A stretch of 64,000 bases of DNA. Source: Ignavibacteriota bacterium. Its GTDB lineage: Bacteria; Bacteroidota; Ignavibacteria; UBA10030. Positions within the stretch are counted from its first letter, which is position 1; every line of letters starts with the position of its first letter. A program made the position numbers and the translations under genes. The notes under the pieces were generated by a model. The model did not search any database and was not told where the DNA came from. It was given only the letters and a program-made list of their open reading frames with translations. Where the stretch lies: NCBI GenBank assembly GCA_963701295.1, contig OY969585.1, forward strand, positions 3,392,001 to 3,456,000, written 5' to 3'. Below are positions 21,575-35,997 of the stretch, piece after piece.

Positions 21575-22582
21575 TCAGTTCATATTTAAAGTTATCCTAT
21601 CTACAGCGCTGTGCAATTCTCCACCAGAGAGATGAGAATATACTTGAGTAACGACAATCGATGTGTGCCCAAGAAGCTTCTGCACCTCATAAATCCCTAC
21701 CCCGTTCTGAACAAGCCAAGTTGCGAAGGTGTGACGTAAGCTGTGGAAATGTAATTTCTTATCCAATCCAGAAGCAATTACTGCTTGTTTAAAAAGGTGC
21801 GAGATTCTTGCCTAGTCCAGATTCCATCCTTTCTCACCTACAAATACAAATTCTGATCTATGTGGAAGTGATTCTAATATTCCAAGGGCAACTACGTTCA
21901 GAGGAACGACTCTTTCTTTACCGGTTTTCGTATGAAAGCTTTCTGAATTCATTATATAGATCTGCTTGTGTGAAAAATCGACCTGATCCTACTTGAGATT
22001 TGCTATCTCACCTCGGCGCAGACCTGTATTAACAGCAAACAACACGACATTCTTGAACCATTGTTTAGGAATAACAGTAAGGAGTTTATTCATCTCCTCC
22101 CTGTTTAAATAAATAGGACGTTGATGTGGAATAGTCAGAAGTCGAATAAACTTGAAAGGATTCTTTTCGAGAATCTGCCAACGAACAGCTAATCCGAATA
22201 TTGCTTTGACTGTTCGCAGATCAATATTCACTGAAATCGGTTTTAATCTTTTTAAGCGATCAGCTTTAAAGCATTCGATATCAAGGGGAGTAACTTTGTC
22301 GAGATGTTTGTCGCCAACTGACTTGATGAAGAATCTCATCGCATAAGTTGCCTTATCAGTAGTTCCTTTTGCATGATGAATCTTAGAATATTCAAGAAAC
22401 TTCTCGAAGAATTGTGATAAGGTTAGATGAGGATAGATCGAACTTTGTTGACCTTCAAACTCTTTTAAGAATTTCTTTGCATCAATTTTATTTTTAGTTT
22501 TTGTGGATATGCGCTGCCATTTGCAGGTGCTGTTAAGATAGCAAAGGTAATAGAATCCATTTGTTCGCTTGCTGAGATACAT
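21575..22582 (-). pseudogene. Tyrosine recombinase / phage-type integrase pseudogene
   Basis: NTGLRRGEI box I and HSLRHTFA..LLGH..TQVY box II; interrupted by TAG at 21989, a frameshift near 21915 and a second TAG near 21813. Confidence 0.9.
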
Positions 22583-22713
22583 TGCAACCTCCTCAAGAAG
22601 TGTGGATGAGGTGACTGCATAGGAACAAAATAGGAACACTATGGGGTTTTTAAGACAGGAGTTTTTGAAGTAAAAATTTCAATTCGATAACTTCAATTGT
22701 ATTATCAACTTTG

Positions 22714-22881: not shown

Positions 22882-22953
22882 AGGCGCCGGGCGGATTCGA
22901 ACCGTCGCATAAAGGTTTTGCAGACCTCTCCCTTACCACTTGGGTACGGCGCC
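22882..22953 (-). tRNA. tRNA-Cys (GCA)
   Basis: GGCGCCGTACCCAAGTGGTAAGGGAGAGGTCTGCAAAACCTT..GGTTCGAATCCGCCCGGCGCCT; one A-C mismatch in the T stem. Confidence 0.95.
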
Positions 22954-23190
22954 ATTCAACAACTTCTTTAGTTCTTCTCTTCCTTTTCCACTCTTCAAAA
23001 ACCTTTCACTTTTTTTTGCTTCATCTTCTGACTGAAATTGCTCTGAGTATATTAACTCAAATGGACGACGTCGTCTTGTGGATTCTGTTTTCCCACTATT
23101 ATGCTCAGCCAACCTCCGGTTAACATCTGAAGAATATCCTGTATAGTATTTTTTATCCTTTATACTTTTCAACACATAAACTTTGTTCAT
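22933..23190 (-). CDS. Small stand-alone GIY-YIG nuclease overlapping the 5' end of tRNA-Cys
   Basis: VYVLKS..YYTG..RRLAEHNSG..ST..RP..LIYSE..A...ERFLKSGKGRE. Confidence 0.93.
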   Translation of the reverse strand: MNKVYVLKSIKDKKYYTGYSSDVNRRLAEHNSGKTESTRRRRPFELIYSEQFQSEDEAKKSERFLKSGKGREELKKLLNGAVPKW

Positions 23191-23193
23191 TTT

Positions 23194-23243
23194 GACTCTC
23201 CCTTACCACACTTGCCCGCCGAAAGCGGGTGCGGTACGGCGCC
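23194..23243 (-). repeat. Duplicated 5' ~30 nt of tRNA-Cys with an 18-nt hairpin-containing insertion
   Basis: GGCGCCGTACC[GCACCCGCTTTCGGCGGG]CAAGTGTGGTAAGGGAGAGTC versus tRNA GGCGCCGTACCCAAGTGGTAAGGGAGAGGTC. Confidence 0.92.
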
Positions 23244-23433: not shown

Positions 23434-23489
23434 GCAAGGAGTTACACTCTTCTCCGCTAAACGCGGATAGGCATCTGAGCTATTCCCGC
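23434..23489 (-). repeat. Degenerate duplicated 5' half of tRNA-Gly with a hairpin inserted in the D-loop
   Basis: GCGGGAATAGCTCAG (15/15 identical) ATGCCTA TCCGCGTTTAGCGGA GAAGAGTGTAACTCCTTGC versus tRNA GTAGAGCGCAACCTTGC. Confidence 0.85.
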
Positions 23490-34041: not shown

Positions 34042-35997
34042 TTATTTGAGTAACAGCCATGTAATCACAAAGAGAATACCACCGATAAATACGACTGCAT
34101 AAAATTGTGCCACACCGGTTTGAATTTTCCGCAAAGATTGCGCTATTGCACTGATAACCTTAGCCGATCCATTCACCATTCCATCAATCAAAGTGACATC
34201 GACGACCTTCCAAAGAATTTCTTCAGAAGTCTTCACCGCCGGTTCAACAATCACCGCACCGTATATTTCATCGACATAATACTTATTCAATAACAATCGA
34301 TAGACGCGAGGATACCGTTGTTGGAGTGAAGTAGCAATTTCGATACGTTGTAGATATACCCAACGCGCAGCATAAATTCCTGCGATTGCAATACCCACAG
34401 AAACAACCATCAGCAAATATTCCATTATCCCACCGGAATATTCACTTGACATCAATTTATATTGTGCATGAGAAAAAACAGGATCAAGCCAATGCTCAAT
34501 AGCGCTCCAATGTGGAATTCCAACGAATCCACCAACGATCGAAAGTCCTGCAAGAATTATAAGAGGCACCGTCATTGTTTTGGGTGCTTCATGCGGGTGA
34601 AGATGATGATCTCCGCCAGAGCCGGATCCGCCTTTAGCGGAGAAGCGACTTTTCCCTAGAAAAGTAAGTGTCACCAATCGGAACATGTAGAATGCTGTCA
34701 TCGCAGCGCCAAAGACACCGAGCAACCATAGAACCCAAGAACCTTGCTCGCTGTTGAATGTCTTCCAGAGAATTTCATCCTTGCTAAAAAATCCTGCGAA
34801 CGGGGGAATACCTGCAATTGCAATTGCGCCGATTAAAAATGTCTTGTAGGTGGTCGGAAGGTATTCTTTCAATCCACCCATTTTCTGTATATCCTGTTCA
34901 TCATGCATCGCATGGATCACTGCACCGGAGCCAAGAAAGAGGAGCGCTTTGAAAAATGCATGCGTCATCAAATGGAAGATACCAGCGCTAAAAGCCGCGA
35001 CACCCATTGCAAGAAACATATACCCAAGCTGGCTAATCGTCGAATAAGCAAGAACCTTTTTGATATCGTTCTGAACGAGACCAATGGTCGCTGCAAACAC
35101 TGCTGTGACTGCACCGATAACCGCCACAACTTCCATTGCAACCGGAGAAAGGGCATAAAGAATAGAACAACGTGCGACCATATAGACGCCAGCTGTCACC
35201 ATTGTCGCAGCATGGATAAGTGCGCTCACAGGAGTTGGACCTGCCATCGCATCCGGCAGCCAGACATACAATGGAATCTGCGCCGATTTACCAATTGCAC
35301 CAAAGAAGAGGAGCAATGTAATCCAGAGAATAGTTGTATTCCCCATTGATAATAGTGATGCACCGCTGAACACAGTACTGAAGTTGAGACTGCCAAAAGT
35401 AGAGAATATTAACAACATGCCAATAATGAATCCAAAGTCGCCGATGCGGTTAACCACAAACGCTTTCTTTGCGGCATCACCCGTAAATTTCTTCTCATAC
35501 CAAAATCCGATGAGGAGGTAAGAACAAAGTCCAACACCTTCCCATCCAAGAAATAGAAGAAGGAAGTTATCGGCAAGAACGAGATTGAGCATTGCAAAGA
35601 TAAAGAGATTCAAGTATGCAAAGAATCGCCAGAAACCACGATCGTCATGCATATATCCGATGGAATAGACATGAATCAGAAACCCGACGCCTGTGACAAT
35701 AAGCGCCATCAAAATGGAAATCTGATCAATTTGATAAGCAATGTCGACACTGAACGAACTTGGTGATCCGGTGAATGCTGAAAGCCATGTAAACAAGGTA
35801 ACAATCTGCTTTCTCTGCTCCGGCTCCACGCTCAGCATTTGGAAGAACACTAATAATGCAAAGAGGAATGACAATCCAACCGTGCCGCTTCCGAGAATAC
35901 CGATAAGCTTTTCGCTTTTCATCCGAGACCCGAAAAGACCAAGTATGAGGAACCCTAGCAACGGAAAAATAACGATGAGCGGCGTGTATATATTCAT
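34042..35997 (-). CDS. nuoL: NADH-quinone oxidoreductase subunit L (contains a 10-aa in-frame hairpin insertion)
   Basis: GWEGVGLCSYLLIGFW, GKSAQIPLYVWLPDAMAGPTPVSALIHAATMV, HAFFKALLFL. Confidence 0.97.
   Translation of the reverse strand: MNIYTPLIVIFPLLGFLILGLFGSRMKSEKLIGILGSGTVGLSFLFALLVFFQMLSVEPEQRKQIVTLFTWLSAFTGSPSSFSVDIAYQIDQISILMALIVTGVGFLIHVYSIGYMHDDRGFWRFFAYLNLFIFAMLNLVLADNFLLLFLGWEGVGLCSYLLIGFWYEKKFTGDAAKKAFVVNRIGDFGFIIGMLLIFSTFGSLNFSTVFSGASLLSMGNTTILWITLLLFFGAIGKSAQIPLYVWLPDAMAGPTPVSALIHAATMVTAGVYMVARCSILYALSPVAMEVVAVIGAVTAVFAATIGLVQNDIKKVLAYSTISQLGYMFLAMGVAAFSAGIFHLMTHAFFKALLFLGSGAVIHAMHDEQDIQKMGGLKEYLPTTYKTFLIGAIAIAGIPPFAGFFSKDEILWKTFNSEQGSWVLWLLGVFGAAMTAFYMFRLVTLTFLGKSRFSAKGGSGSGGDHHLHPHEAPKTMTVPLIILAGLSIVGGFVGIPHWSAIEHWLDPVFSHAQYKLMSSEYSGGIMEYLLMVVSVGIAIAGIYAARWVYLQRIEIATSLQQRYPRVYRLLLNKYYVDEIYGAVIVEPAVKTSEEILWKVVDVTLIDGMVNGSAKVISAIAQSLRKIQTGVAQFYAVVFIGGILFVITWLLLK
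34612..34641. repeat. Tandem pair of 15-nt hairpins inserted in frame in nuoL (SAKGGSGSGG)
   Basis: Minus strand TCCGCTAAAGGCGGA-TCCGGCTCTGGCGGA; the first unit is 14/15 identical to the hairpin at 23453-23467. Confidence 0.85.

Follow-up and report, generated by a model that had tools for sequence, protein, structure and literature searches.

Insertion in nuoL

How does a 30-nt stretch predicted to fold into hairpins come to lie within the reading frame of nuoL, a core gene of respiratory complex I, and what could have placed it there? We addressed this question in a 64,000-nt stretch of an Ignavibacteriota genome (contig OY969585.1, positions 3,392,001 to 3,456,000), hereafter called the window; its genome, a single contig of 3.64 Mb, is referred to as G000. 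The minus-strand letters of 34612-34641 are TCCGCTAAAGGCGGA TCCGGCTCTGGCGGA, and we confirmed that they encode SAKGGSGSGG in a NuoL loop, as proposed in the initial annotation (Table 1). The frame of the host gene has no internal stop and its product scores above the curated NuoL cut-offs (TIGR01974, 785 bits against 407.5; NF005141, 775 against 556). The AlphaFold model places the insert in the loop listed in Table 1, with pLDDT below 50 at residues 455-464. The length of this loop differs among solved NuoL chains, and extra residues are found there in 6hum_F.

In an alignment of 30 NuoL orthologues, the ten residues form an exact 10-codon indel with one possible breakpoint, TTC^GAT, in agreement with the clean indel that had been predicted. 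The site is empty in the four closest species, which read TTC^GAT or TTC^AAT, and the insert has no similarity to the nuoL flanks. The 30 nt in NuoL are a clean in-frame insertion. A segment conserved across orthologues with its hairpin broken by synonymous changes was not what we found in NuoL; such a pattern instead fits the later fate of an older copy in NuoC (see below). Just upstream of the insert (window 34645-34656, minus strand) there are two residue changes specific to G000 (EGKRRF to LGKSRF), and the local identity to close relatives upstream of the insert drops to about 80 % from more than 90 %.

Table 1. Coordinates of the features discussed; positions refer to the window unless a locus or genome position is given.
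Feature	Position	Strand	Remarks
30-nt double-hairpin element, in frame in nuoL	34612..34641	-	SAKGGSGSGG, residues 453-462; two substitutions relative to the family consensus
Unit 1, purine loop AAA	34627..34641	-	position 6 C>T, synonymous, C-G pair changed to T-G
Unit 2, pyrimidine loop TCT	34612..34626	-	element position 20 C>G, one pair broken, Ala to Gly
Split target TTC^GAT	34609..34644	-	TTC 34642-34644, GAT 34609-34611; no target duplication; matches family consensus TTY^RA
Host gene nuoL	34042..35997	-	intact, 651 aa; insert in predicted loop between helices 421-447 and 473-491
Single decayed unit of the hairpin family in dead tRNA-Gly copy	23453..23467	+	perfect consensus unit in G010
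Dead 5' copy of tRNA-Gly(GCC), hairpin insert in D-loop	23438..23489	-	in G000, G009 and G010; absent from G004 and G006
85-aa single-domain GIY-YIG gene, candidate mobiliser	22933..23190	-	
290-bp cassette in tRNA-Cys	22954..23243	-	dead 5' tRNA copy, CCCGC-type hairpin (23215-23229), GIY-YIG gene; absent from G001, G004 and G009
Small GIY-YIG genes in partial duplicates of tRNA-Ala(GGC) and tRNA-Leu(CAA)	L031, L034 = G000:C1:2356210, 3297553		own hairpin type each
GIY-YIG gene between arrays of nested hairpin repeats	L033 = G000:C1:2938956		
Older in-frame element copy in NuoC, second nuo-type operon	L270:675-704 = G000:C1:434574-434603	-	outside the window
Secretion-tail loci with recurrent insertion	L061, L063, L065, L066, L134, L164; L060, L096, L132, L140, L141, L148, L180, L267		

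Structure and copies of the element

The insert belongs to a family of 30-nt doublets. The consensus consists of two units, TCCGCC-AAA-GGCGGA followed by TCCGCC-TCT-GGCGGA, from which the nuoL copy differs by one substitution in each stem. The sequence had initially been described as a tandem of two 15-nt hairpins. Two hairpins are indeed present, but the units stand head to head, each with a 6-bp stem and a 3-nt loop, and the mobile unit is the 30-nt doublet and not the single 15-nt hairpin. We counted covariation in 45 distinct sites, chosen by fixed positions only and with the 120 exact-pattern loci excluded; these sites are not phylogenetically independent. Inside the units, 83 of 90 pairs (47.7 expected) and 81 of 90 pairs (60.6 expected) were retained, and the cross-unit pairs were near chance. 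Because the pairs covary within the units while those between units stay near chance, two hairpins represent the conserved fold. A single long hairpin is favoured by energy for the consensus and is ruled out by the covariation.

A two-unit profile recovered 15 copies in G000 at a score of at least 16 and none in each of five Markov controls. For four of them the insertion point is GGTTC^RA in a decayed 3' copy of a tRNA, and two of the copies are in long reading frames. For unit 1 taken separately there were three sites within one mismatch, against none in each of three Markov controls. The looser motif suggested for a genome scan, YCCGC-N5-GCGGR, did not prove diagnostic, as TCCGC-N5-GCGGA occurs six times and other spacings one to six times, so there is no enrichment. 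At three positions (G000:C1:151625, 410758 and 411818) a single unit of the family adjoins another type of hairpin with a longer loop, suggesting that hairpins are combined as modules. Rfam contained no match for the element at gathering level, only one chance match (E 4.2).

Distribution, target site and reading frame

Allowing up to three mismatches, we detected the element in 38 of 86 genomes of the family, with no hits for a reversed-pattern control. The exact element occurs at at least 120 sites, counting one genome per species. The 80 matches listed come from Patescibacteria, Omnitrophota, Verrucomicrobiota, Planctomycetota, Ignavibacteria, Chloroflexota and others, with no cyanobacterium among these 80. 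The carriers among the exact matches listed are nearly all metagenome assemblies. As for possible vehicles, viral contigs contained no exact match, and the plasmid matches were at chance level (best E 2).

The flanks of the 120 exact sites listed are far from random: T is found at -2 in 93 and a pyrimidine at -1 in 97, followed by a purine at +1 in 108 and A at +2 in 107, which gives the target consensus TTY^RA. Target duplications of 2, 3, 4 and 5 nt were seen at 2, 1, 0 and 0 of these 120 sites. Under the target profile, the nuoL site TTC^GAT ranks 52nd among 4096 hexamers. A preference for targets in hairpin loops was considered and rejected, since 29 of the 119 target sites that were reconstructed lie in such loops, as do 89 of the 314 controls matched to them (p 0.47).

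The frame scan comprised 136 frames of at least 100 codons spanning the element, up to two per locus, 65 of them with a Pfam match. The element lies inside the Pfam-matched span in 46 frames and is in phase 0 in 45 of them, where it reads SAKGGSASGG or SARGGSAFGG; the target preference alone would give 45 % (p 6e-15). As the element is stop-free in all six frames, this bias is due to the peptide and not to stop avoidance. The readings in the other phases are Arg- or Pro-rich, and selection on the peptide is the likely cause of the phase bias. The in-gene copies favour one orientation (38 of 46). Among the host proteins are RpoC, GyrB, TopA, SecA, L4, AtpG and several tRNA synthetases. The indel, the spread of the family and the frame data together support the initial idea of a micro-element that looks mobile and persists in core genes as a Gly/Ser loop. 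We also noticed two recurrent insertion points in the C-terminal tails of secretion systems, one after NYPNPF and one after YxVxF, which are filled both ways round; the secretion-tail proteins of G000 themselves point to a host of Bacteroidota or Ignavibacteria type.

Candidate mobilising enzymes

A very small selfish element is the likely source of the nuoL insert, because the in-frame site is clean, the same spot is filled in some unrelated relatives, and the element occurs in many uncultured bacteria. Whether the insert is, more specifically, a copy of a non-autonomous two-hairpin element mobilised in trans by a small GIY-YIG nuclease appears to us evenly balanced. The initial annotation had pointed to the GIY-YIG protein encoded in the window itself, but mobilisation by this protein did not gain support. 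Its cassette carries a different hairpin type (CCCGC), and the expected correlation did not appear. Small GIY-YIG genes are present in 35 of the 38 genomes with the element and in 43 of the 48 without it (Fisher p = 1), and the counts of the element do not follow those of the gene (rho 0.21, p 0.057; within genera r 0.08).

The window's GIY-YIG protein matches only PF01541 in Pfam and nothing in NCBIfam, its closest structures are UPF0213, and it is 27 % identical to the repeat-flanked GIY-YIG protein of G000. The closest homologues of its cassette are in other genera; because of this and its absence from three related genomes (Table 1), the cassette is, like the nuoL insert, a recent arrival. 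Of the four small GIY-YIG genes found in G000, three lie within partial duplicates of tRNAs into which hairpins are inserted; the fourth belongs to an array of another repeat. The reported 14/15 identity of unit 1 to the hairpin in the dead tRNA-Gly copy is real, and kinship of the two is supported. The C>T change that they have in common is derived in G000, which fits a local template; the same change in two other genomes weighs against it. In G010:C2 (L320, L325), about 76 kb, probably belonging to an integrated element, separate the two parts of tRNA-Cys at the place where G000 has the GIY-YIG cassette. At window 21575-22639, adjoining tRNA-Leu(TAA), there is an integrase-like gene in two frames, apparently split, which we named from motifs by eye.

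Across genomes, the association of the element with tRNA-nested GIY-YIG genes is seen at particular loci. GIY-YIG loci adjoin a tRNA in 21 of 30 cases. In G060, G004, G080, G074, G023 and two Patescibacteria genomes, dead tRNA copies that adjoin small GIY-YIG genes contain the element. It sits in the T-loop of dead tRNA-Leu copies next to the GIY-YIG gene at L203 and L315, and in three genera it occupies the D-loop of a dead copy of tRNA-Ser, 25-36 nt ahead of the GIY-YIG gene. It flanks the gene on both sides at L203 and L371, one such case being in a Patescibacteria genome, and on one side at L315, L341, L346, L353 and L382. At the same time, the element is near only 1 of 30, 2 of 18 and 2 of 21 GIY-YIG loci, many of which carry other hairpins. 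Out of 153 unselected element sites, two are within 500 nt of a small GIY-YIG gene, against 0.19 expected, and in G000 none of the 15 copies is closer than 11.6 kb to one. One GIY-YIG clade occurs in 13 of the 38 genomes with the element and in 5 of the 48 without it (p 0.015). This comparison was made post hoc and includes kin, which do not count as independent; at the cut-off, G000 itself does not match the clade.

It is possible, though unlikely, that the element is moved instead by an HUH Y1 transposase (IS200/IS605 TnpA or RAYT), as proposed for REPINs, and that the dead tRNA copies may be merely neutral TTY^RA targets. Such an enzyme would agree with the lack of target duplication at element sites and with the doublet of hairpins, which resembles the 'clover' fold of REPINs. 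Element counts also track Y1 transposases (PF01797; rho 0.42, p 6e-5; within genera r 0.25) better than GIY-YIG genes, and the relation persists after genome size is taken into account (rho 0.38) and on 33 genus means (rho 0.43). However, the counts of Y1 and of GIY-YIG genes also correlate with each other (rho 0.41), and both may reflect mobile-element load. One element copy lies 125 nt from a Y1 gene (L389:901-930, G074:C302), but inside the loop of that gene's own different repeat. Moreover, G000 has a single weak Y1 match (E 8e-4), and in five incomplete Patescibacteria assemblies with 4-28 copies, three are without a Y1 match while all five contain GIY-YIG genes.

Repeated filling of the nuoL site

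Whichever enzyme is involved, the same codon boundary of nuoL is occupied in several lineages. The site is filled in G000, G006, G012 and G014, that is in 4 of 15 congener rows of the alignment and in none of the 15 rows from other genera. It is also filled in G186, a member of another family chosen from 251 genomes by match length, and all eight of its fetched genus mates are empty. Among 60 distinct nuoL alleles, five from two families are filled, all at TTY^GAT; of the remaining alleles, 35 have TTY^RA and 20 lack it. Trees inferred after removal of the insert reject a single clade of carriers (p-AU 5e-5 for four carriers, 7e-86 for five), and the five-carrier tree needs four changes, three of them forced by well-supported branches. 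The flanks of nuoL in G000 group with those of its empty relatives on both sides, so that the G000 copy is most simply a separate recent gain.

Empty nuoL junctions appeared in all four sequencing runs examined, whose contigs come from relatives and are thus uninformative about habitat or expression; neither movement at the level of reads nor expression of a filled allele was observed in them. Among the runs screened, none contained half of the sampled words. Searching 401 genomes of the phylum for the pattern of the filled site returned G000, G006 and one secretion-tail gene, with no further nuoL. The substitutions in the nuoL copies are mostly amino-acid-changing, and peptide conservation of the kind seen in NuoC is lacking. 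Shortened or diverged loops stand at the nuoL site in L246, L226 and L229 (NTKGSS, STKK and SIKQ), and these may be old remnants of the element. The nuoL loops of G050 and G049 are possible old remnants as well and were excluded from the filled count.

Position 4 of the element is A in four of the five filled alleles (G006, G012, G014 and G186), in an 18-nt remnant in G228 and in one environmental contig that carries a compensating change. This A is rare among otherwise exact copies and hints at a shared origin. It would be accounted for if the recurrence in nuoL went back to one or two old insertions, spread by very short homing-like gene-conversion tracts and lost by recombination with empty alleles, with no dedicated enzyme. 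The common orientation of all filled nuoL alleles would agree with this as well, as would a weakly supported NuoC tree in which the empty alleles of G001, G004 and G009 are nested among filled ones. We nevertheless find gene conversion distinctly unlikely. Position 4 is the consensus G in G000, and the loop differs in G186, while the flanks of G000 and the downstream flank of G186 follow their own clades. The secretion-tail sites are filled in both orientations and therefore by separate insertions, and the at least 120 unrelated sites would be left unexplained.

An older copy in NuoC

The copy in NuoC shows what may follow an insertion. Nine of the 14 congener rows carry it, and none of the 16 from other genera does; the empty alleles named above read TTC^GAT. 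For eight of the nine filled alleles (G012, in which one codon is deleted, was dropped), the insert has a pS of 0.50 and a pN of 0.12; pN/pS is thus 0.25 in the insert, compared with 0.13 in the remainder of the gene. The stems of the NuoC copies have been lost by synonymous change. In this copy the DNA fold is decaying and the peptide is largely kept.

This decay also bears on the idea that the element is a host-selected signal, a protein-binding or RNA-structure motif placed in genes and spacers. Strong covariation does mean selection on the fold, the orientation bias inside genes would suit a signal, and the related pair of Ssn nuclease and NTS repeat has a host role (PMC11893778). A signal of this kind is very improbable, however, given the patchy presence among close species, at least one broken stem pair in each of the five nuoL genome copies, the synonymous loss of the NuoC stems and the absence of an Rfam match at gathering level. 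The metagenomic origin of nearly all carriers among the matches listed might bring to mind local slippage or an artefact of assembly or library preparation. Such an origin is refuted by the pattern of inheritance and decay along the lineage, with covariation, frame bias and the lack of similarity to the nuoL flanks also against it.

Comparison with known repeats

We compared the element with several known families of small repeats. As in the RPEs of Rickettsia, a palindromic repeat sits in frame in unrelated working housekeeping genes and adds a peptide, and RPEs likewise are not known to have a proven mobiliser (PMC10969869). The element differs in being 30 nt long and not about 150 bp, in consisting of two tiny hairpins, and in having the defined target TTY^RA. 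The RPEs are described from one genus (PMC10969869), whereas the element is found in many phyla, and no kinship in sequence is shown.

The cyanobacterial SDRs (Elhai et al. 2008; PMC4390886) are very small repeats inserted precisely at a fixed point of a short palindromic target, such as SDR5 in HIP1. The element likewise inserts precisely at a fixed point of a short target, TTY^RA, without duplication. The lengths of SDRs are reportedly multiples of three, and SDRs are said to occur in genes. The element probably has a different sequence and different hosts, and unlike the SDRs it has a doublet structure and a possible link to tRNA-nested GIY-YIG cassettes.

With REPs and REPINs the element shares an inverted doublet of short palindromes as the mobile unit, its head-to-head units covarying separately (for REPINs see PMC3116915), and some REPs also lie inside genes (PMC3116915, PMC3733652). 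It lacks the GTAG/CGTC end tag that defines REPs (PMC3733652) and ends in TNN...NNA. Unlike REPINs (PMC3116915, PMC3733652), it has no spacer, is low in copy number (15 in G000) and is often intragenic; it also appears not to form an array flanking a RAYT gene. Unlike MITEs, it shows no target-site duplication at its sites.

Ssn nucleases cut single-stranded DNA near their repeat, and, somewhat as in Ssn with its SRM/NTS repeats, some loci here have a small single-domain GIY-YIG gene flanked by a hairpin repeat (for Ssn see PMC11893778). The GIY-YIG protein of the window differs from the Ssn enzymes in being closest to UPF0213 structures and in sitting in tRNA genes. NTS is in genes in only 2 % of cases (PMC11893778), whereas the element is often in genes. 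The flanking hairpin is a feature of Ssn, and at most GIY-YIG loci our element is absent. The DHEs of fungal mitochondria are the last case, being short, GC-rich, composed of two adjacent hairpins, near-identical across species and presumed mobile (PMC10085805). The element is bacterial and routinely translated in frame, and the likeness to DHEs is drawn from their description and not from sequences. Taken together, the element works like RPEs, SDRs, REPINs and DHEs, and misses a defining feature of RPEs, REPs, MITEs and DHEs. In the full-text literature covered, that is main texts with few subscription papers among them, we found no description of the element or of a tRNA-nested GIY-YIG cassette.

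Proposed mechanism and meaning

For the way the element enters and stays in genes, one course of events is very probable. The element would insert at TTY^RA in either orientation, and copies inside genes would survive only at the codon boundaries of tolerant loops. Because survival in genes is limited in this way, the same few sites, such as the nuoL loop and the secretion-tail domains, would be hit again. Afterwards the hairpins would erode, and the peptide could stay, as in NuoC.

The enzymatic part is less certain, and we put it slightly below an even chance. In the preferred reading, the small tRNA-nested GIY-YIG nuclease, encoded behind dead, hairpin-bearing tRNA copies, would nick DNA at sites of the TTY^RA type and beside hairpins, and host repair would join a copy of the element into the nick. 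GIY-YIG nucleases are hydrolytic and cannot ligate by themselves. By occupying the D- or T-loop of the dead tRNA copy, the element would spoil the cassette's own target.

In its widest form the proposal is a tentative one, which we hold with some doubt. It would be a kind of mobile DNA run by a plain nuclease, in which mini GIY-YIG genes nested in tRNA genes distribute a twin hairpin of 30 nt among phyla by nick and repair at TTY^RA, a motif of tRNA D- and T-loops, with neither transposase nor target duplication. The same Gly/Ser loop would be added again and again, at one and the same codon of complex I and in other core proteins, and some copies would be kept by selection.

At the nuoL locus, the novelty lies in one codon boundary being filled repeatedly across families and in a gene target that matches the sites in tRNA loops. 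In G000, nuoL and nuoC represent two stages on the way from selfish DNA to a loop of a protein. The insertion in nuoL is recent and has recurred at one codon; that in nuoC is older, its fold decaying while the peptide is kept. Shared 10-residue indels of this type are unsafe phylogenetic markers. The route of very small palindromic repeats such as RPEs, SDRs and DHEs into genes has no proven enzyme. In the family described here, the substrate is a defined stretch of 30 nt with a consensus for its target, empty and filled alleles exist in nature, and there are two candidate enzymes, which makes the question directly assayable.
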